Source of the DNA: Escherichia phage EPFV3-03/2025
Sequence record: PV435126.1
Length of the DNA: 64,000 nucleotides
Strand: one strand, 5' to 3'
This document shows, piece after piece, positions 1,208 to 21,636 of the stretch. The stretch's first letter is position 1, and each line of letters opens with the position of its first letter. The position numbers were made by a program, and so were the translations under genes. The notes beneath the pieces were generated by a model. It was not told the DNA's origin, searched no databases, and saw only the letters and a list, made by a program, of their open reading frames with translations.

Positions 1208-2938
1208 TTATATTATGTCATATATTATTAACTTGTCAATTGTCACCTTGCTAATTGTTTTCATGCAAACGAATGTCATGGCTTATCATCTCTGTGTAAA
1301 CTGTCAATGTGTAAACAGTCTACGCAGGAACAATCTATACGTGAACAGTGAAACATGAAATAATAACAGTCGTTATTGTGTCGAAAGTGTCGTATTGTGT
1401 GACATTGTGTCAGACAAGTTTTTCTCCTCTTTGTCAAGTGCTGCATGGAAAATTTACAATCTGGTATGGTAGCATTTTTGCGGCCCCGTTTACATGCATG
1501 AGTGTATGTATAATCCTTGTTGTGTGGGCGTTTAGACGTCTGGACGGTCAGAAGTCCGCAGGTTAATATCTAATCTATTGGTCGCTAACTATATCCACCA
1601 CAAATAATAAGAAATACAATTGTTATATTCGTAAACAGTAACCCATGTTATCAATCCCTGTATGTATCGCCAGTGGTGCGCATAATGGGTATTATGTTAA
1701 ATTGCCCGTAATGATAACGATTCTCACAATGATAAGTATTCTCATTCATCCACACAAAATAGCTTGCAAATGTTGTGCCACTGTGTGAACGGCCTCGCCT
1801 ATTAATTTGCCTCACTGCCCCGATATTTGAGAATTGTTATAAGAATGAGAAGTATTCCCATTCCGTCCGCCTGGCAGCACTCCAGTCGCTACCGGCTCCT
1901 GACAGGGTAGCACTCCTGTAGGACAAGCACAAAATCTGGGCATAACTGGACCTGTTCAGATATTTCTGGCTGACTCTTCAGGTCTGTGTGGGAAAAGCCA
2001 ACCTCTCCGGCGGGGCAGGGGGGGTCTGCATGGCAGATTTCACCTGGAGCGAAACCCTTAAGGGTAAGATGGGGTGGTATTACAGGAAAAATTGCAGGTC
2101 AATTAAAAAATTTACGTGGTGTATGAAGCCCTCTTCAGGCAGGGCGTGTATTATGGGATGAAACCCTCTTCAGGTGATGATATTTGTGGGTGTGATATTT
2201 GCTGGAAAGCCAGATATGACGGGGCTCCCGGCGGGGATGGGGTAGTACAGGCAGGGAAAATGTGGGGATGTGGTGTGGTAAATTGATCAGGCAGGTAGGA
2301 TATGGAATATGTTACAAGTATGTTAAATATGGAGGTAGGATATTTGTAAGATTTGTGTGTAAAATCAAATACTTATGTGGTGTTGTGGTATTTTCTATAA
2401 ATAATTCAAGTTTAATAGGTGATATTTGTCTCCATCTACTTTGTGTGGTAAACAGATTCTAATTGAATTGGTTTACAAGTGTATATAAAGTATACAAATT
2501 AAAGATATAAGAAACCCCCCTCCCCCCTTCGGCTACCATTCACCTTTTCCTCTGACTGGTACTTAAACACTTATTCAGACTCTTCAGGTTATCACCCATA
2601 TATCATATGGCAGTGACTGGTGTCCTCCGGCCCCTCTTTCGTCACCCGTCCGCTTCGCCATGCTAATGCCATAGCTAACTGTTCGGTTGTTCACCCTGTT
2701 CACTCAGGTGTATCTCCATACCCCTTCAAACCGAAGAGAACAGAAAACCCGAATTACTCGGTAAAAGAAAAGAGAAGAACTTAATTTTATCAGGATAGGC
2801 AAGAATGTCAAGGCATGACTGCTCACTAAACAAGCAAACAGTCATGTGTGGGAGGTAAGTGATTGTGGTGGTAGGAAATTTAGTTGAAAGATGTGTTATA
2901 GGTGCTTCCAGCACTTTAGCCTGGCAGCTAATTGTGTG

Positions 2939-3154
2939 TCAGTCCAGCGGTTCATCCTCTACTTCACTGAAATCAATGTTCATGGTCTCTTCCCAACCAT
3001 CGATCTCAGCACAAGAGTGGAGTTCTTTAGGGTTTACTCCCAAAGCCTCAGCAACAGAGTCTATATTTAACACCTCTGGCAGGTATGATTCATCGAATTC
3101 AAGGTAAATCAGGCCACGAGTGTTGTCAGCTCCACCAAATATTTCTATCTTCAT
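2939..3154 (-). CDS. hypothetical small acidic protein
   Basis: 71-aa ORF starting MKIEI; last gene of the minus-strand block. Confidence 0.45.
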   Translation of the reverse strand: MKIEIFGGADNTRGLIYLEFDESYLPEVLNIDSVAEALGVNPKELHSCAEIDGWEETMNIDFSEVEDEPLD

Positions 3155-3274
3155 AAAATCTCCTCTGGGAATGAGAGTGTGAACAGGATTATACGTTCCA
3201 ATGCACTGGAATTTATATACGTTTGCCTCTTCAGGCCATGCTTTAGCATGATAAACTTGTGTGGGCTCGGTGCT

Positions 3275-3610
3275 TCATAGTCTGCCACCTCTGAACTCTT
3301 CGTTCTCAGGCATGATAGAGAACCAGATGGCTATGATGTCCTCCCACGTCAGGTCATCAGCCTCAGGGTCCACCTGGGACGGAGATAGAGAATCCTCAGA
3401 ATTGAAGTTTTTCTCTGCGGTCGCTTCTTCAGATGTCTCTTTAGGTGCATGTGTGTTGGTCATGTTCCACCCGTGAGTATTCCGGCAACAGCCGCTATGG
3501 ACGTAATGATCATCAGGATCACCACCAAAACCTCGGACAATGTTTTCATTGCGTATTCCATATTCTTCAAACGATGTGAGGATACTATCACAGGAGCTGT
3601 AATGTGTCAA
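3275..3610 (-). CDS. hypothetical protein
   Basis: 111-aa ORF; start uncertain (a promoter-like motif overlaps the first codons). Confidence 0.4.
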   Translation of the reverse strand: MTHYSSCDSILTSFEEYGIRNENIVRGFGGDPDDHYVHSGCCRNTHGWNMTNTHAPKETSEEATAEKNFNSEDSLSPSQVDPEADDLTWEDIIAIWFSIMPENEEFRGGRL

Positions 3611-3771
3611 CAGAAACGCCGCGAGGGTTGGTTAAAATCCGAGCGTATGGTGATTTGGGTCAAAACGGACGTGCGTTCTCGCTACGCTCGAAATAGAGAG
3701 TTGTTTGTAAGCAGCTCTTAAACGCTCTGTAATGATATTAACTACCTAAGGTATGGAATCGTGCACCAGAT

Positions 3772-3797
3772 AAAGAAAAGGACGCCACAGAGCGTCC
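3772..3797 (-). terminator. rho-independent terminator (minus strand)
   Basis: ggacgc/gcgtcc hairpin with T-run on the minus strand, just downstream of the gene ending at 3823. Confidence 0.5.
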
Positions 3798-3822
3798 TAG
3801 GTGCCTTAAATTTGATATTTTG

Positions 3823-4134
3823 CTATACCCATGAGGGCTTGTCTAGGTTGGAGTAGCTGAAGGGGGTCAAAAGGTGACTGTCAAAATCTTTCAAACTGTC
3901 CAAGTCTTTTTCCTCGTCCTGACACCATCTGTGCCTGCATTTATTGTTGTAGTGCATGGAATGCATAGCGTTCTGCAACTTAACAGGTACAAGTGATTCA
4001 GGAGTAGATAGAATTGTTGGGTATGCCAGGACTATCTCAAACAATGGAAACACATCGAAACTGAAGTCTATTTCTGCTGAGGTTGCTGGCATATAGGAGT
4101 ATTTAGCTGTCGTTGTAGACATAATCCACCTCAC
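3823..4134 (-). CDS. hypothetical protein
   Basis: 103-aa ORF, abuts the next gene. Confidence 0.5.
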   Translation of the reverse strand: MRWIMSTTTAKYSYMPATSAEIDFSFDVFPLFEIVLAYPTILSTPESLVPVKLQNAMHSMHYNNKCRHRWCQDEEKDLDSLKDFDSHLLTPFSYSNLDKPSWV

Positions 4135-4457
4135 ACAGGCTTGATAATACCTTCACCGAATAACTCTTCATATTTAATCTTATCAGGATCCCACTCCTGG
4201 ATAATTTCGAAGACAATATCCAGCCCAGGGATAATCACTTCTCCGGTATCAAGTCTGGCAAGAACAAAACCGGAAGGTTGAATGGTTTCCCAGTTGCGAC
4301 GATTAGAATAGATAACTTCGAAAATATCGCCAACCGCAATCTGTTGATCAAGGTGTTCAAGATTCTCTTTCATATAAACGCAGCGTATTTTCCGTGCAGG
4401 CCACAGGCCCCCTGCATCACGTTTATTTAGCTCTTTTACAGTAATCGGCATTAGCAT
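4131..4457 (-). CDS. hypothetical protein
   Basis: 108-aa ORF. Confidence 0.55.
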   Translation of the reverse strand: MLMPITVKELNKRDAGGLWPARKIRCVYMKENLEHLDQQIAVGDIFEVIYSNRRNWETIQPSGFVLARLDTGEVIIPGLDIVFEIIQEWDPDKIKYEELFGEGIIKPV

Positions 4458-4480
4458 TTCTGATCTTCTCCATAGATAGT

Positions 4481-4503
4481 AAAAAGAGGGGCCAAGACCC
4501 CTC
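4481..4503 (-). terminator. rho-independent terminator (minus strand)
   Basis: gagggg/cccctc hairpin with T5 run on the minus strand, downstream of the gene ending at 4511. Confidence 0.6.
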
Positions 4504-4510
4504 TTCGTTG

Positions 4511-4816
4511 TTATTCTGCAGAGCGTTTGAACAGAATGTCTGCTTCAGACATGTGCTCAACCTCTTCTTCGATTTTAGCTCGACGTTTTTCAGCTTCGTA
4601 GCGGATATCGAATTCGGTAGCCACCAATGACTTGATAAACTTAGGAGAATACAGGTGATCCTGTTTCTCGACAAGAATAATATCCTTGATAGCGTCTTTC
4701 AGATCTTTAATCTGAAGCTGAAGTTCCACCAGCTCTTCAATTGTTTTACGGAGGCGATCACGCTCTGCAGTGTCAGAAGGCAGAGAGGTGAACAGTTCAA
4801 CTTTAGATTTAGCCAT
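4511..4816 (-). CDS. hypothetical coiled-coil protein
   Basis: 101-aa ORF rich in E/K/L heptad-like sequence. Confidence 0.55.
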   Translation of the reverse strand: MAKSKVELFTSLPSDTAERDRLRKTIEELVELQLQIKDLKDAIKDIILVEKQDHLYSPKFIKSLVATEFDIRYEAEKRRAKIEEEVEHMSEADILFKRSAE

Positions 4817-4844
4817 AGTAAGAGTCTCCTTATATTGTTTTAAA

Positions 4845-5096
4845 TTAACGTTCTACAAAAATACCATTCAGTTCGATAACCAGGAATTTCTGATCTTCAC
4901 TATCGTCACGTGCTAGCACCTCACAGACGTAACGGTCATCTCCGTCATCATCACAGTCAAATACAAGGCTGAGGACTTTATCATGATAAATCTTCGACAC
5001 TACTGCCTCGTAAGTATTGCCGATTGTGAATCCAAGATAATCCCCGATGCATTTGACAACAACATGGTCGCCAGCATTTAAGTCAATCTTCGTCAT
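4845..5096 (-). CDS. hypothetical small acidic protein
   Basis: ORF 4845..5162 trimmed to the internal start MTKIDL, which has an aaggag RBS. Confidence 0.55.
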   Translation of the reverse strand: MTKIDLNAGDHVVVKCIGDYLGFTIGNTYEAVVSKIYHDKVLSLVFDCDDDGDDRYVCEVLARDDSEDQKFLVIELNGIFVER

Positions 5097-5251
5097 TACT
5101 GTGCTCCTTGGGTGATAATATGGTATGTAAAACTTTAACCAGAGATGTGAATAACGCCCCAAAACACACAGATAGCGCTAAAACGGATAAGGCCATCATT
5201 AAAGCTTCAGTAAAATCAGTCATTCCTCACCTCTTGTTAGTAACTATACTA

Positions 5252-5515
5252 TCATTTATCTTCGCCGTCAAGAACTTTTTTAAATATCTCAGGAATATCT
5301 CCTGTTCTTAGATAGCTCATGACCTCCCAAGGTTTCCACTTGAACTTCTTGCACAGTAAGGCAGCCGAGATCGTCTCGTTGCGAAAAGAAAGGATATTAA
5401 TATCCCACTCTGAGAACCCCAATTTCCGAAGAGTGGCTATAGAAATCCTCACAGCAACCCAACAAGAGAGGCACGCAACAAACGCCACTGCCACAACCCA
5501 CATCAGGATGTTCAT
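5252..5515 (-). CDS. hypothetical membrane protein
   Basis: 87-aa ORF with N-terminal hydrophobic segment WVVAVAFVACLSCWVAV. Confidence 0.45.
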   Translation of the reverse strand: MNILMWVVAVAFVACLSCWVAVRISIATLRKLGFSEWDINILSFRNETISAALLCKKFKWKPWEVMSYLRTGDIPEIFKKVLDGEDK

Positions 5516-16695: not shown

Positions 16696-16750
16696 CTGTT
16701 TGTCAACAACTGTTTTAGATATTTAAGGGTGGAATAACCACCCTTCTGTA

Positions 16751-17539
16751 TTACTCGGAAACAGGAGTCCAAATATGATTTGCACGATCCTCAATAAGAT
16801 TGAGTGCAATCTGACGGCCTAACCCGGAACGAACGACATCGTCTGGACTATCAAAGCTAATCATTCCAACCTCAGGATCTGGATGACGCGTAAAGAAATC
16901 TGTCACCCATGCAAGGCCAGATTTACCAGGGATGTCACGTTGGCTGTTATCGCCCATAATTACAAGGGTGGCCTGATCAGAGATCCTTGTGATAATTGAC
17001 AACATTTCTTCAGGATTGGTTTGCTGTGCTTCATCAATAAGGACAAAGCATCGTTCATCAAAACTACGACCACGAATGCTTTCAACCTCACAAATCTCGA
17101 TACGGCTGTTCTGACCGTCCCCAAGCATTGCTGCAAAAGCACCTTTGCCAACACGACGACAAATCGTGTCCATCATGCTTCTAAGATAGGGCCACAGTTT
17201 CTGCATTGCATTTCCAGGTTTAAATCCTGAAGTCTTTCCTGTCTGAACGTAAGGGCGTGCAACAATGATCTTATCAATCTCGTTCTTGCGCAGAAGATCC
17301 CCCGCATATGCAGATGCCATGAATGTCTTACCGGATCCAAACACACCGTTTACAATGATAATCTTACGCGACCCTAGATAATCAAGATACTTTTGCTGCT
17401 TTTTATTCATTGGTCGGAGAGCTGGAGCGGTGTGCTCTCGTTCGTCAGCAAATTTTTCAGCAGCCTTACGCAGGCGATCAGATTTGCGAGCCTCTCTAGC
17501 TTCATCACGCATGCGTTTTGTTTCTTTAGCTCGACCCAT
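16751..17539 (-). CDS. phoH: PhoH-like ATPase
   Basis: 262 aa; Walker A GVFGSGKT and overall PhoH-like organisation. Confidence 0.85.
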   Translation of the reverse strand: MGRAKETKRMRDEAREARKSDRLRKAAEKFADEREHTAPALRPMNKKQQKYLDYLGSRKIIIVNGVFGSGKTFMASAYAGDLLRKNEIDKIIVARPYVQTGKTSGFKPGNAMQKLWPYLRSMMDTICRRVGKGAFAAMLGDGQNSRIEICEVESIRGRSFDERCFVLIDEAQQTNPEEMLSIITRISDQATLVIMGDNSQRDIPGKSGLAWVTDFFTRHPDPEVGMISFDSPDDVVRSGLGRQIALNLIEDRANHIWTPVSE

Positions 17540-17577: not shown

Positions 17578-17928
17578 TTACTGCAATAGTTTTTCAATAG
17601 CCGCTTCCATGCTGCTTGCAACAGCCTGAACTCGGATATTCATCTCTTCTTGGTGGATCAGCTCCTTAAGCTCTTTAATGGTAAATTCTTTAGAGAAACC
17701 TTCCACCATAATCTTGTGTAAGGCTTCTTGCGTATCTACCTGCAAGAACTTTTCCAGTTTGTTGGCAGAGGCTTCTAAATCAGCCCGAATACGAGGGTCA
17801 TCTGTGCGATTCAGCATCAGGCGTAAGCCATCAAGATTAGTAGAAATAGCGTCTGCATGTTGAGTAACTAACCGTGGCAAAATGAGATCTACAAACTTAT
17901 TAGCCAAATCGATACGTTCTTGTGTCAC
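17578..17928 (-). CDS. hypothetical protein
   Basis: 116-aa ORF, probably GTG-initiated. Confidence 0.5.
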   Translation of the reverse strand: MTQERIDLANKFVDLILPRLVTQHADAISTNLDGLRLMLNRTDDPRIRADLEASANKLEKFLQVDTQEALHKIMVEGFSKEFTIKELKELIHQEEMNIRVQAVASSMEAAIEKLLQ

Positions 17929-18038
17929 TGTTGCACCCCCTCTTCATCCTCATGATGTTTCTTTTCACGCTTGTGTTTTTTCTTAAGCTCAAGCGCAATC
18001 TCTTTTTTGTACGCCTTCTTCAAGGCCTTTTTAGCCAT
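17926..18038 (-). CDS. small lysine-rich protein (about 37 aa, below the ORF-track cutoff)
   Basis: ATG preceded by gaggagg RBS; translation MAKKALKKAYKKEIALELKKKHKREKK..; consensus TTGACA-N17-TATAAT promoter upstream on the minus strand. Confidence 0.4.
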
Positions 18039-18100
18039 TTGGCACCTCCTCTGCTTTCATTACGCTAATTATAACCAACTTAACAAGACTTTGTCAACAA

Positions 18101-18592
18101 TTAGTCAACCTGAACCCAACCGCCTGCTACCTTTTTAAACATTCTTTGGTTATCGCTGCCTCGGAATGGTTTCTTGGTTGGTAAATCTTTTACATACTTT
18201 CCATCAATGACGATATCAGCCAGTTTAAGAACATCACTAGAGATATGCTCAAATGTGAACCCAGTATACACAAGAATAGTTTTCTTGTCACCAAACTTTT
18301 CCTTAATTCTCCTCATAAGGTCAATAATACCTGGCTCATTATAAGTAGCCAAAGGCTCTCCACCAAGTAAAGAAATACCGCATACAGATTCATTGTCTAA
18401 ATCCAACAAAATTTTCTGCAAATCTTCTTCGGTGAACTCTCTTCCTTTATCTTTTGACCAAAATGCTTGATTAAAGCAACCAGGACAAGCGTGTGGGCAC
18501 CCAGATACCCACAAAGCTGTCCTAATACCTGGTCCCTCGGTGTAAGATATCTCTGTATACCCGACAATATTCATACATACTCCGCATCGCAT
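18101..18592 (-). CDS. nrdG: anaerobic ribonucleotide reductase activating protein
   Basis: 163 aa; radical-SAM-type cysteine cluster GCPHACPGC; directly downstream of nrdD. Confidence 0.8.
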   Translation of the reverse strand: MRCGVCMNIVGYTEISYTEGPGIRTALWVSGCPHACPGCFNQAFWSKDKGREFTEEDLQKILLDLDNESVCGISLLGGEPLATYNEPGIIDLMRRIKEKFGDKKTILVYTGFTFEHISSDVLKLADIVIDGKYVKDLPTKKPFRGSDNQRMFKKVAGGWVQVD

Positions 18593-18750
18593 TTAGGACA
18601 ATGCCAAATAAAATCGTCCAGTGCCTTACACCAACGAAGATTGCAATGACAACCACACTTGCAAATTTTATAAATACCTGTAGACATACTGCACCTCCTA
18701 GTTTACTGTGTAACAACAATATGCCACATCCTTGTGACTTTTGTCAAGTA

Positions 18751-19713
18751 TCAGCAACCACAACTTCCGTAGTGCTTAACCCGTTCTATAACCTCCGCTT
18801 GCTTACCTTTATTGTAAGGACGAGAGTTTGGACTGGACAGATACCCGGATACGCGTCTGATCACACTGATCGTTCCTTCTTCATGGTTTCCACATTCTGG
18901 GCATACAAAGCCTTTAGCTGTTGCACTGAACTCACCAGAGAATCCACACTTAAGACATTTATCCACAGGCTGGTTAATACCAAAATACATAATGTGTTTA
19001 TATCCGAAATCAACAAGAGCTTCCAAAGCATCTAAGTTGTTTTTCAGATTTGGTGTCTCTATGTACCCAATGTTGCCACCAGAGGAGATCATAGCAAAAC
19101 CTTCCTCATACTTCCACTTATCAAAAGGCGAGCTATTGATCCATACTGGCTGATGGAAACTGTTGGTGAGGTATTCATGCTCGTGCTTCAACACTTCTGG
19201 GTATTCACGATCCAGACAGGTTGCAGCTTTATAGCATAAACTCTCAGAAGGTGTGCCGTACAAGCTAAATGCTAGTCCACTTTCCTTCTTGTATCGCTCA
19301 CAAGCATCTTTCATGTGCTGAAGGATTCCAAGAGCTAAAGCCTTGTCACCCTCTCTGCCCAAAATCTGACAGGTTTCATACACACCAATATACCCAATAC
19401 TGATGGAAGCGTACCCGTCATAGAAGAGTTTATCGATACTCTCTTCAGGATCCAGGCGAGCAAGAGCTCCTTCACACCACATGATAGGGTTCTGCCCTGC
19501 CTTTGTTCCTTTTAGACGGTTAACCCTTACAAGGTGAGCCTCATATGCCAAATCCAAATATTCGTCAAGAACTGCAAAGAAATCAACACCTTCCGTTTTA
19601 GCTTTTGCCGCAATCATTGGTAGGTTAAGGCTAACAACACCCAAGTTGAATCTGCCAAGGTATTTCTCCTCGCCTGTTACAGGGTCGCTATATTTCGATA
19701 AGAAACTTCTACA
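18751..19713 (-). CDS. nrdD: anaerobic ribonucleotide reductase, exon 2
   Basis: Begins at CRSFLS; C-terminal glycyl-radical motif RVSGY and cysteine tail CGC. Confidence 0.8.
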   Translation of the reverse strand, partial: CRSFLSKYSDPVTGEEKYLGRFNLGVVSLNLPMIAAKAKTEGVDFFAVLDEYLDLAYEAHLVRVNRLKGTKAGQNPIMWCEGALARLDPEESIDKLFYDGYASISIGYIGVYETCQILGREGDKALALGILQHMKDACERYKKESGLAFSLYGTPSESLCYKAATCLDREYPEVLKHEHEYLTNSFHQPVWINSSPFDKWKYEEGFAMISSGGNIGYIETPNLKNNLDALEALVDFGYKHIMYFGINQPVDKCLKCGFSGEFSATAKGFVCPECGNHEEGTISVIRRVSGYLSSPNSRPYNKGKQAEVIERVKHYGSCGC

Positions 19714-20475
19714 CATTATGTTCAAGGTGGTTCGCAAGGCCACCCCCGCACCTTTACGTGCTGCTGCATGTCCCCATGCAGATCAGACTATATCTTCACA
19801 CTTAGTGTGTCTACCATTTCGAGTGTCATCAGCTTACACCCTACACCGCTACATTCATCACGGTTAGTCGTTAGGCATTTCGTAACAGAACTCGTAATCA
19901 TAGTTATTAGGTGCACCACGTTTCAGGATAGCAGATATTCTTTTTCTATCTATTCCTAAAACATCAGCACAACATCTCAGACTCTTAAAGTGAATAACCA
20001 CACCAGTTAATTTGTGGGTGGCTTTCACCCCGTGACATCTTGTGTAAAAAGCATAACAGTTGTTGTCGTATCCTTCTTGAGTATTGTCTGGGCAAGCTCC
20101 CCACTCAAGGTTGTATACGCTGTTATCTTTCCTGTTGTCACCTTTGTGCTTAACATATGGTAAATTGTCTGGATTTGGTAAAAACGCTTCAGCAACAAGT
20201 CTGTGAACCCTTAGGCAAACAGTCTTTTTGTTCTTGCGTATCCTGACAAGACGGTAACCTGTGTTTATCTCTTCCCACGAATGAATAATTCTTTCATTTT
20301 CGTATCGGGTGCAATAAACATTGCCCATCTCGTCAATTTCATAACCTTCAAAATCACGAATTTGTTTTCTCATTTCAGGACTCCTCTTAGTCAGGAGTTC
20401 TGTTACGTTTAGCACGGGATTGTCCGTTCTGGAGTTTCCCCGTTTAGATAGATTTTACATGAGCAGTTATAGTTT
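19714..20475 (-). mobile_element. candidate group I intron in nrdD carrying an HNH homing endonuclease
   Basis: nrdD reading frame is interrupted; exon 1 ends in U (..atgggt) and the intervening sequence ends in G before tgt(Cys); free-standing HNH ORF inside; same arrangement as the T4 nrdD intron. Confidence 0.6.
19864..20415 (-). CDS. HNH homing endonuclease
   Basis: 183 aa; VHRLVAEAFLPNP...KHKGDNRKDNSVYNLEWG, typical HNH_3-type motif. Confidence 0.8.
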   Translation of the reverse strand: MLNVTELLTKRSPEMRKQIRDFEGYEIDEMGNVYCTRYENERIIHSWEEINTGYRLVRIRKNKKTVCLRVHRLVAEAFLPNPDNLPYVKHKGDNRKDNSVYNLEWGACPDNTQEGYDNNCYAFYTRCHGVKATHKLTGVVIHFKSLRCCADVLGIDRKRISAILKRGAPNNYDYEFCYEMPND

Positions 20476-21636
20476 ACCCATGCTTGTTACTTTGCCGTCT
20501 GTTGAACCTGTCACTTTACGATTCAGCGGAACAGAAACAAAGTCAGGATAAATCCGCTCTGCAGAACATTCTAGAGCCAATCGTTTCAAATCGTAGTTAG
20601 GATCCCCAGGGTTCATGTTGACACCCTCCTCTAAGAAGAACAGCACTTTAGGGAACACAGGTGTGATCCGTTCTTCACCAAGACCCATTTTGTGAACTTT
20701 CAAGTAGTTTTTGGTAATCATTCTACCAAAGACCGAGGTATCTAGCCCTAAACTTAATGTGATGAATGGAGTTTGCCCGTTGACAGAAGTTAACGTATTG
20801 ATTTGGTAGAGCAAAGTTTGCATACTATCAAACACGTCTTTATCTGTCATTTGCATTGCAACAGTCTCAGCATCTGGCAACCAATGTTCCTGACAAAATT
20901 TAAGGTTCTTCTCGTAGGTTGCTTCAGCATACTGTGCCAGATAATGATCAATATGGCTCATGGTCTGACCACCATATTGAGCACTAGCTACTGCACTAGA
21001 GATTTGGCTAAGGATTGTTGTTGCAACCCCTATTGACTTCGGCTTACTGACATGGGCGTTGCCAATGTTGAATCCGTTTTCCAGCATATCCGGATAATTT
21101 ACCAAACAACAGTTTGTTAACGGACTGATCAGGTAGTCAAGATCATGCACATGGATGAAGCCTTTGTTGTGCTCTTCGGAGACACGGTCTGGCAGGATCT
21201 GTGTTGATGCAAGATGTTTGCTAAGGATTCCTGCAAGCAGGTCACGATGAGTGTGTACATGATTAGTAGGCTTATTTGCGTTTTCTTTTGTAAATTCATC
21301 ACAAGTACGATCCAAGAAGCCGCTAATATCTGCAAGCAGTTTTCCACCTGCCTCTCTGTTATTATCCCTTGTCTGTCTATACTGGATGTATTCTCTGGCT
21401 GCACATTTTAAACCCATATCCATAAGAGCATCTTCAACAAGGATATGGATATTTTTTACAGAGATCGTGCACTGGTCAGTTGGCAGATTGTTGGCAACAA
21501 CTTCATTAACCGCACAGGCAATCCGGTAAGCTTCTTCTTCAGTATGTCCAGACTCAAGTAAGGCGGACTCTGCCGCCTTGATCACCTTAATTCCGTTATA
21601 AAACTCTTCTCTACCGTCCCGTTTTACAACTTTCAC
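20476..21636 (-). CDS. nrdD: anaerobic ribonucleotide reductase, exon 1
   Basis: N-terminal ATP-cone-like start MKVVKRDGREEFYNGIKV and GFIHVHDLD region; ends ..VTSMG. Confidence 0.8.

Follow-up and report, generated by a model that had tools for sequence, protein, structure and literature searches.

The window, a 64,000-nt stretch of DNA from Escherichia phage EPFV3-03/2025 (PV435126.1), carries on its minus strand a very small open reading frame (ORF) behind a sigma70-type promoter and a Shine-Dalgarno sequence (SD), followed by a gene for a 116-aa protein (the partner gene) and a gene for a PhoH-like ATPase. In the order in which the minus strand is read, the features are:

18092 to 18097, minus strand: −35 hexamer TTGACA of a sigma70-type promoter, the equivalent of rV5 'P118'; 0 of 6 positions variable in 13 vequintavirus copies.
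18074 to 18091, minus strand: promoter spacer of 18 nt; 13 of 18 positions variable among relatives, length constant at 18.
18068 to 18073, minus strand: −10 hexamer TATAAT; 0 of 6 positions variable.
18043 to 18050, minus strand: SD of the small ORF, AGGAGGTG (from sequence and conservation).
17925 to 18038, minus strand: small ORF with an ATG start, 37 aa and a TGA stop (ORF listing, homologs and coding selection).
17982 to 18038, minus strand: codons 1-19 of the small ORF, encoding the conserved N-terminal block MAKKALKKAYKKEIALELK, a predicted helix (alignment A5, dN/dS and AF2).
17976 to 17981, minus strand: run of six A within Lys codons, where natural indel variants occur.
17935 to 17942, minus strand: SD of the partner gene, GAGGGGGT, inside the acidic C-terminal codons of the small ORF.
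17578 to 17928, minus strand: partner gene, 116 aa, phrog_7650, with a GTG start in a GTGA stop/start overlap.
16751 to 17539, minus strand: gene for a PhoH-like ATPase, the third cistron in the conserved block (synteny in every lineage).

The product of the small ORF is the 37-aa peptide MAKKALKKAYKKEIALELKKKHKREKKHHEDEEGVQQ, in agreement with the peptide of about 37 aa proposed by an earlier, sequence-only reading of this DNA. The 18092 end of the span given there, 17926-18092, clips the −35 hexamer, which begins at 18097. ORFs of at least 20 aa number 104 in 6 kb, and a 37-aa ORF alone is thus no evidence of a gene. Conservation in relatives had been proposed as a check, with its lack counting against the gene; we find the 181-nt segment comprising the promoter and ORF in 118 phage records at 90-100% identity, and homologs of the peptide across lineages.

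The window region shares 99.3% identity with Escherichia phage vB_EcoM_SYGMH1, 98.9% with FV3 and approximately 94% with the rest of Vequintavirus, identifying the window as an rV5/FV3-like Vequintavirus. The same gene is present as rV5 ORF118/rv5_gp113 (YP_002003615), FV3_00110, PVP-SE1 gene 144, KB57_139, Hena1 gp045 and phrog_7670, and the window peptide is identical to that of FV3 and differs from that of rV5 by one residue (H28Y). Residues 1-37 match positions 1-37 of the 46 positions of the phrog_7670 profile (E = 2e-20), a family listed with function unknown. The FV3 record labels the ORF 'hypothetical protein, similar to rV5', the PVP-SE1 record labels gene 144 'conserved hypothetical protein similar to rv5_gp113', and the rV5 record (NC_011041) annotates both ORF 118 (rv5_gp113) and a 'Sigma70-type promoter; P118'. 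In the 2013 rV5 paper, 33 promoters are predicted from a consensus search, Table S4 gives P118 as TTGACAAAGCTTTGTTAAGTTGGTTATAAT, and according to Table S3 gene 118 encodes 37 aa (4482 Da, pI 9.8) and has no homolog, and gene 119 encodes 116 aa (pI 5.1) (PMC3606486). A term search of the supplements of the same paper gave no mention of gene 118 in Table S5, which reports mass spectrometry on the phage itself (PMC3606486), and our literature search found no vequintavirus transcriptome and no ribosome-profiling or proteomic support for the gene. Given these records, the rV5 paper and PHROGs, the gene and its predicted promoter are already known and annotated as hypothetical. The window shares with rV5 the position of the gene between nrdG and the 116-aa gene and PhoH, and we see no structural difference between the window and the other gp113 family entries, all of which are called 'hypothetical protein', with P118 standing as a consensus-search prediction.

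Both a scan for promoters and a search for the exact pattern locate hexamers with 12 of 12 consensus matches upstream of the ORF, separated by 18 nt, a length within the 16-18-nt range accepted for such spacers. The sequence-only reading had described a perfect TTGACA-N17-TATAAT; both hexamers are indeed perfect, but the spacer is 18 nt rather than 17. The optimum spacer is 17 nt, and that of the window promoter is one longer. This is the only 12/12 promoter in the 64-kb window, where 0.08 would be expected and where 8 of 100 shuffled sequences contain one. Promoter-like sites with at least 9 of 12 matches occur in the region at chance level (22 found and 21 expected). The strong gaggagg ribosome binding site that had also been noted corresponds to AGGAGGTG at 18050-18043, which is invariant in 13 vequintavirus copies. 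It is perfectly complementary over 8 nt to the 16S rRNA 3' end, ends 4 nt before the ATG (6 nt from the AGGAGG core), and is free rather than sequestered in the predicted mRNA fold. By itself the 8-mer is not rare (3 found and 1.8 expected).

Variation at these elements was counted over 13 vequintavirus copies, 10 of them distinct. The hexamers have 0 of 12 variable positions against 28 of 49 adjacent non-coding positions (Fisher's exact p = 2e-4), and the 10-nt SD block AGAGGAGGTG has 0 of 10, with a single 1-nt insertion in one copy (L012); taken together, hexamers and SD differ from the adjacent non-coding positions at p = 9e-7 (Fisher's exact test). The surrounding variation is spread over the spacer (13/18), the 16 nt upstream (8/16) and the 15 nt between the −10 hexamer and the SD (7/15, plus indels). 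This pattern indicates selection on both hexamers and on the SD in vequintaviruses, where the promoter is very probably functional. Beyond them, an independent TTGACA-N17/18-TATnAT site precedes the small ORF in several lineages, with 11/12 matches in KB57-type phages, L006 and L020, and 10/12 in L016. The promoter search across lineages found none upstream of the small ORF in L013, Hena1 and L017, and in PVP-SE1/L021, where the small ORF abuts nrdG, the sole candidate site lies inside nrdG. Because the promoter is missing in L013, Hena1 and L017, the promoter-first position is not universal to the family. All 12 lineages sampled have a strong SD 5-9 nt ahead of the ATG.

A tblastn search of phage genomes with the 37-aa peptide returned no match, probably as a consequence of low-complexity masking. 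The family was found instead by anchoring on the downstream 116-aa protein and taking the small ORF directly upstream. Relatives of the 116-aa protein, 24-33% identical to it, occur in Mydovirus (KB57), Henunavirus (Hena1) and metagenomic lineages, and the small ORFs upstream of their genes include those of KB57, MSKKALRKAYTKELALELRGKKPKNKRSSDEELQQLAADAAARGGY, Hena1, MSKRTLRKAYQKELAMALRTTKRGRKDRRENDNSFVAAGERDGWEPTNG, and L006, MSKKSRKAKRAYDKEFKLEIKRLKKAAEERKRKEKEEEDEL. A divergent vequintavirus-like lineage, L013, has a partner 66% identical to that of the window and the small ORF MAKKLLKKLYKRELAMEHKKKRKQNDKSKDYFEEEFK. Searching 5.8 billion proteins with a family profile recovered 40 members, 37-65 aa in length. 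Two of them reach 65 aa because the gene call was extended upstream, and homologs are otherwise 37-52 aa, with the family carried on long phage contigs of approximately 130-150 kb. When 1.84 billion cluster representatives were scanned exhaustively with an HMM, only 8 clusters were returned, all of 32-49 aa, and therefore the motif never lies within a larger protein. With L018 corresponding to PVP-SE1 (Seunavirus, 99.7%), the family is present in Vequintavirus, Seunavirus, Mydovirus, Henunavirus and further lineages, hence at least four genera, and its phages infect Escherichia, Salmonella, Klebsiella, Proteus and Erwinia. As judged by these scans, the peptides form a stand-alone, clade-specific family of 32-52 aa.

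Coding selection was assessed by Nei-Gojobori counting over codons 1-19 in comparisons between lineages. In these codons the synonymous proportion pS is 0.5-0.9, at or near saturation, while pN is 0-0.15 among Seuna-, Mydo- and Hena-like lineages, and dN/dS is 0.03-0.17 where computable. L004 and L021, for example, are separated in these codons by 12 synonymous differences and 1 non-synonymous difference, and L016 and L021 by 6 and 0. The same holds at close range. Across the 13 vequintavirus copies, of which 10 are distinct, there are 13 varying codons, 11 of them with synonymous changes only; all seven varying codons of the N-terminal block are synonymous, and amino-acid changes are limited to H28Y/R and V35A. 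Since synonymous sites are free to change, the constraint acts at the level of the protein rather than of an RNA or DNA element, and the substitution pattern indicates strong purifying selection on the amino-acid sequence, concentrated in residues 1-19.

Across larger distances, the N-terminal 19 residues of the window peptide are 53-74% identical to those of distant lineages, compared with 24-33% for the partner and 48-60% for PhoH. The block is thus conserved about as well as PhoH and about twice as well as the partner, and the peptide tail shows essentially no conservation across lineages. Alignment A5 (36 members) yields the block consensus MSKKTLRKAYQKELA[LM][EA]LR, and the window peptide fits the motif M[SA]K[KR]x L[RK]KAYxKE[LIF]Axx[LI][RK]. 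In this alignment every member has M1, K12 and E13, and 35 of 36 have A9 and Y10. Hydrophobic residues are conserved at L6, L/I/F14, A15, L/M16 and L/I18, and K and R interchange freely at the basic positions. This conservation is solid evidence that the 37-aa 'hypothetical' is truly coding and that its core is a predicted 19-residue helix. Invariant hexamers and SD amid mutating surroundings, together with purifying selection on the ORF, show that this is more than chance, and the micro-gene is almost certainly genuine and translated.

The small ORF lies directly upstream of the phrog_7650 gene, with PhoH downstream, in every lineage, and is never found without its partner. In all 12 lineages the partner start falls close to the end of the peptide stop codon, from 11 nt before it to 10 nt after it. 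The junctions include GTGA, ATGA, TAATG and ATGnnTAA, and in two lineages there are gaps of 8-10 nt in which the partner SD overlaps the stop codon. Purine-rich SDs analogous to GAGGGGGT precede the partner start in all lineages. This geometry is kept although the junction sequences are unrelated, which indicates selection for translational coupling and co-production of the two proteins. The partner is acidic in all lineages (net charge −1 to −10, pI 4.6-5.6). A Pfam search found no domain in it, and phrog_7650 has no informative fold match; its AF2 model consists of four helices (pLDDT 94). The most conserved segment of the partner, LAxxFVxLxxPRL in helix 1, may represent a candidate docking site. 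In Seuna-, Mydo- and Henunavirus the pair abuts an endolysin gene, which prompted consideration of a holin or lysis regulator. This idea was rejected, since both proteins lack a hydrophobic segment and in vequintaviruses the endolysin gene is not a neighbor of the pair.

The window peptide is 35% Lys+Arg with a pI of 9.8, and its relatives are comparable, with net charges of +5 to +7 in all 12 lineages sampled and pI values of 9.8-10.6. The N-terminal block is followed by a K/R patch (residues ~20-27) and then an E/D patch (~29-32), giving a conserved charge layout of +4 to +6, then +3 to +4, then −2 to −3. AF2 with the family alignment predicts a single helix, with pLDDT of 88-90 over residues 1-20 and values of 66 and then 54 in the tail. 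Amphipathicity of the helix is not significant (muH 0.22-0.44, with the observed value reached in a fraction 0.08-0.54 of shuffles), so that the conserved residues are distributed over more than one face. An amphipathic membrane-active or antimicrobial-like helix was accordingly rejected, as the hydrophobic moment is no better than that of shuffled sequences. Searches of Pfam (E ≤ 10), NCBIfam, PDB sequences and PHROGs of assigned function gave no match to the peptide, and Pfam, NCBIfam, PADLOC and PDB-sequence searches with the peptide and the partner returned sub-threshold noise only, including Cas8g (E = 0.016-0.06) and calcyclin-binding protein (E = 0.33), both taken as chance.

Several relatives vary at the run of six A. 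An A5 variant shifts the frame in P0040, L022 and L023, and P0015 has two additional Lys residues. Programmed frameshifting was considered and rejected for this run, which is not in the canonical X XXY YYZ register; the A5 variants are thus more simply explained as indels or assembly errors.

We propose that the micro-gene is the first cistron of a host-sigma70-driven unit that would run from P118 through the 37-aa peptide and the 116-aa four-helix protein to PhoH. Host sigma70 RNA polymerase would start transcription at about 18061, judging from canonical spacing, and the consensus SD would drive heavy translation of the small ORF. Ribosomes terminating there would re-initiate on the GTG of the partner, and with the partner SD placed within the last codons of the peptide, both products would be made together. 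The product itself would be a single helix comprising the conserved basic N-terminal segment and the K/R patch, followed by a short acidic patch with a variable tail. We hypothesize that this basic peptide (+5 to +7) serves as a small subunit or cofactor of the acidic partner (−1 to −10), forming a phage-specific complex tied to the PhoH/nucleotide-metabolism block, in which the K/R patch might contact RNA or DNA. In general, coupled gene pairs encoding small and large subunits offer a parallel, and like them the window family keeps a stop/start overlap or near-abutment and complementary charges; here, unlike in such pairs, the physical interaction is a proposal. Taken as a whole, the account of a coupled Vequintavirinae micro-gene working with its partner is our best explanation and, in our estimation, slightly more probable than all else combined. 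On its separate parts, action of the peptide in a complex with the partner is a tentative proposal to which we give somewhat less than an even chance, and nucleic acid binding by the peptide is rather doubtful. The A9-Y10-x-K12-E13 core, the conserved hydrophobic residues, the basic and acidic patches and the obligate coupling look more like a specific protein-protein module than like generic binding of a polycation to DNA.

Two observations sit uneasily with a complex. First, the N-terminal block is much more conserved than the partner, which fits a conserved host target at least as well. Second, the helix has no significant amphipathicity and hence no obvious single docking face.

The first of these leads to the alternative of a stand-alone host-takeover micro-protein, whose 19-residue helix would bind a conserved host machine (e.g., RNA polymerase, the ribosome, a nucleoid protein or the division apparatus), with coupling to the partner serving as an expression arrangement only. 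A host-sigma70 consensus promoter in several lineages is consistent with such a role, and conservation of the N-terminal block far above that of the partner, in phages of enterobacterial hosts, is what would be expected if the target were a conserved enterobacterial protein. The natural frameshift variants also retain the N-terminal block and replace the tail. Tiny phage host modulators are well known, among them T7 Gp2 and Gp0.4, lambda Kil, LUZ24 gp4/Mip and T4 Stp. The window peptide has in common with them its size class (26-64 aa), a largely helical single module and host-RNAP promoters, and they may serve as functional analogs for a conserved interaction helix of 19 residues. However, profile and sequence searches show no similarity of the window peptide to these or other characterized inhibitors. 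Such modulators are usually encoded in early takeover regions and lack obligate coupling to a partner, whereas the window gene lies within a nucleotide-metabolism/PhoH block, is never found without its partner, and has kept tight stop/start coupling in 12 lineages despite changes of the junction. We regard a free-standing host modulator as the main rival of the complex, but as unlikely. The same low probability attaches to a more specific version, in which the N-terminal helix would be a dedicated binder of a conserved enterobacterial machine, either the ribosome or an RNA-processing factor, given the PhoH/YbeZ neighborhood, or RNA polymerase, with the partner acting as its chaperone or regulator.

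The sequence-only reading had suggested a nucleic-acid-binding or histone-like peptide. A free basic peptide with non-specific affinity for DNA or RNA, acting as a histone-like, charge-neutralizing or nucleoid-compacting factor, would account for the Lys+Arg content, the high pI, the positive charge in all lineages and the tolerated interchange of K and R. The neighboring gene would also suit it, as PhoH/YbeZ family members are putative nucleic-acid-dependent ATPases. The peptide shares high Lys/Arg content and a basic pI with HU/IHF, H-NS and small basic ribosomal proteins, but it is much shorter than these, forms a predicted single helix, carries an acidic patch and is clade-restricted. No homology to any of them or to histone folds was detected, and for HU/IHF and H-NS the searches covered Pfam (E ≤ 10), NCBIfam and PDB sequences, so the histone-like guess finds no backing in what is a clade-specific peptide of 32-52 aa. 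The sole PDB-sequence resemblance, to the RXR DNA-binding-domain extension (E = 0.48), is not significant and was set aside as chance. Selection also acts beyond charge, on specific non-basic residues that are invariant or nearly so (A9, Y10, E13, L6, L/I14 and L18), and the basic part is followed by the conserved acidic patch. Non-specific binding is in our judgment improbable.

It is also conceivable that the act of translation alone matters, with the ORF serving as a starter uORF that delivers ribosomes to the GTG of the partner, or as a leader peptide for attenuation. The GTGA overlap, the non-ATG start of the partner and the location of its SD inside the ORF are all in keeping with such a role, as is the poorly conserved tail, which is partly dictated by that SD. 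The low dN/dS of codons 1-19, at saturated synonymous sites, shows the amino-acid sequence itself to be selected and contradicts a pure starter uORF. Folding of the leader and ORF is unremarkable (z = −1.4), with no terminator/antiterminator structure, a scan of the minus strand found no terminator, and an Rfam search of the leader and ORF gave no match. Conservation is moreover N-terminal, rather than C-terminal and tunnel-proximal as in a stalling leader. We consider this explanation very improbable. A chance ORF beside a chance promoter-like sequence, for which the abundance of short ORFs and the chance-level frequency of 9/12 sites might speak, is refuted by all of the comparative data (homologs, dN/dS, invariant hexamers and SD, and 118 records) and retains next to no probability.

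As a genome feature the micro-gene is ordinary, and it challenges no current concept. What is added here is the coding evidence, together with the recognition of a predicted 19-residue helix that is conserved like PhoH across at least four genera and is tied to an acidic four-helix partner. If the helix did prove to be a dedicated binder of a host machine, gp113-family peptides would constitute a new class of host-modulating micro-proteins, Vequintavirinae-wide. Vequintavirinae are widely used as therapeutic and biocontrol phages and form part of the BASEL collection. In light of this use, a subfamily-wide and putatively highly expressed micro-protein is a reasonable, cheap and modest target for functional study.

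The transcription unit predicted to start at P118, which comprises the small ORF, the gene for its acidic four-helix partner, and phoH, probably ends at a hairpin and a promoter-like site:

16725-16745, minus strand: hairpin directly 3' of the phoH stop codon
16678-16706, minus strand: strong promoter-like site, TTGACA-N17-TATTAT (11/12), downstream of the hairpin

The hairpin reads AAGGGTGG-TTATT-CCACCCTT and is not followed by a U-tract, and the promoter-like site is the counterpart of P121 in rV5.

Within the unit, natural variants are found in which the A6 run of the small ORF (17976-17981) is shortened to A5 (L022 1501-1638; L023 1501-1638). The A5 run shifts the reading frame downstream of the conserved N-block (MAKKALKKAYKKEIALELKKNTSVKRN...), so that the frameshifted ORF extends 28 nt beyond the partner GTG. 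Five contigs carry this variant, which occurs together with two distinct promoter-spacer sequences; another peptide homolog (P0015) is an in-frame variant with two additional lysines. These A-run variants could reflect true hypervariability, or they could have arisen from assembly errors in the homopolymer.

In lineages other than Vequintavirus, the partner likewise starts with MSKKA, MAKRT, or MAKK- (partner starts in L003 1965-; L004 1965-; L016, L017, L020, and L021), resembling the N-terminus of the small peptide itself. This likeness probably reflects a preference, common to highly expressed genes, for A-rich lysine codons following the ATG, and not homology between peptide and partner.

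Upstream of the unit lie a second mini-ORF and the anaerobic ribonucleotide reductase gene nrdD:

18571-18687, minus strand: Cys-rich mini-ORF of 38 aa
18751-21636, minus strand: nrdD region, two ORFs and an HNH ORF

There is an overlap between the mini-ORF and the start of nrdG, and a Shine-Dalgarno sequence that is a further, perfect copy of AGGAGGTG (18699-18692, minus strand) stands in front of the mini-ORF. Its Cys-rich product, MSTGIYKICKCGCHCNLRWCKALDDFIWHCPKCDAEYV, contains CxC/CxxC pairs that suggest a zinc ribbon; records of relatives annotate it as "hypothetical" or, in one record, "ribonucleotide reductase." An HNH homing-endonuclease ORF (19864-20415) interrupts nrdD, leaving two ORFs (20467-21636 and 18751-19743); FV3 has the same arrangement, whereas nrdD of rV5 is intact.

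Over the region around the small ORF, approximately 18-19 unannotated phage-database records named "Campylobacter phage" (MG0656xx) are 94-99% identical to Escherichia coli rV5-like phages; these are probably assemblies that were mislabelled or derive from contamination, and not genuine phages of Campylobacter.

Two further features were found in other lineages:

L013 1-2324 versus 2325-5345: mosaic junction in a divergent vequintavirus-like lineage
L003 ~1783-1807, L016 ~2450-2475, L020 ~2448-2478: GC-rich leader hairpins

Across nrdD-nrdG, L013 shares 88% nucleotide identity with FV3, whereas divergence is far greater in its peptide/partner/PhoH module, where amino acid identity of the partner is 66%. 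Megablast similarity ends at the nrdG 3' end, the expected place of P118, and the promoter is missing from L013. In Mydovirus-type and related lineages, the 5' leader is longer and, unlike the vequintavirus leader, carries a GC-rich hairpin between the promoter-like site and the Shine-Dalgarno sequence. These hairpins are alike in position and different in sequence (e.g., CCTGCCG...CGGCAGG and CCCGGCC...GGCCGGG), and could serve as a regulatory element or as the terminator of the upstream gene.
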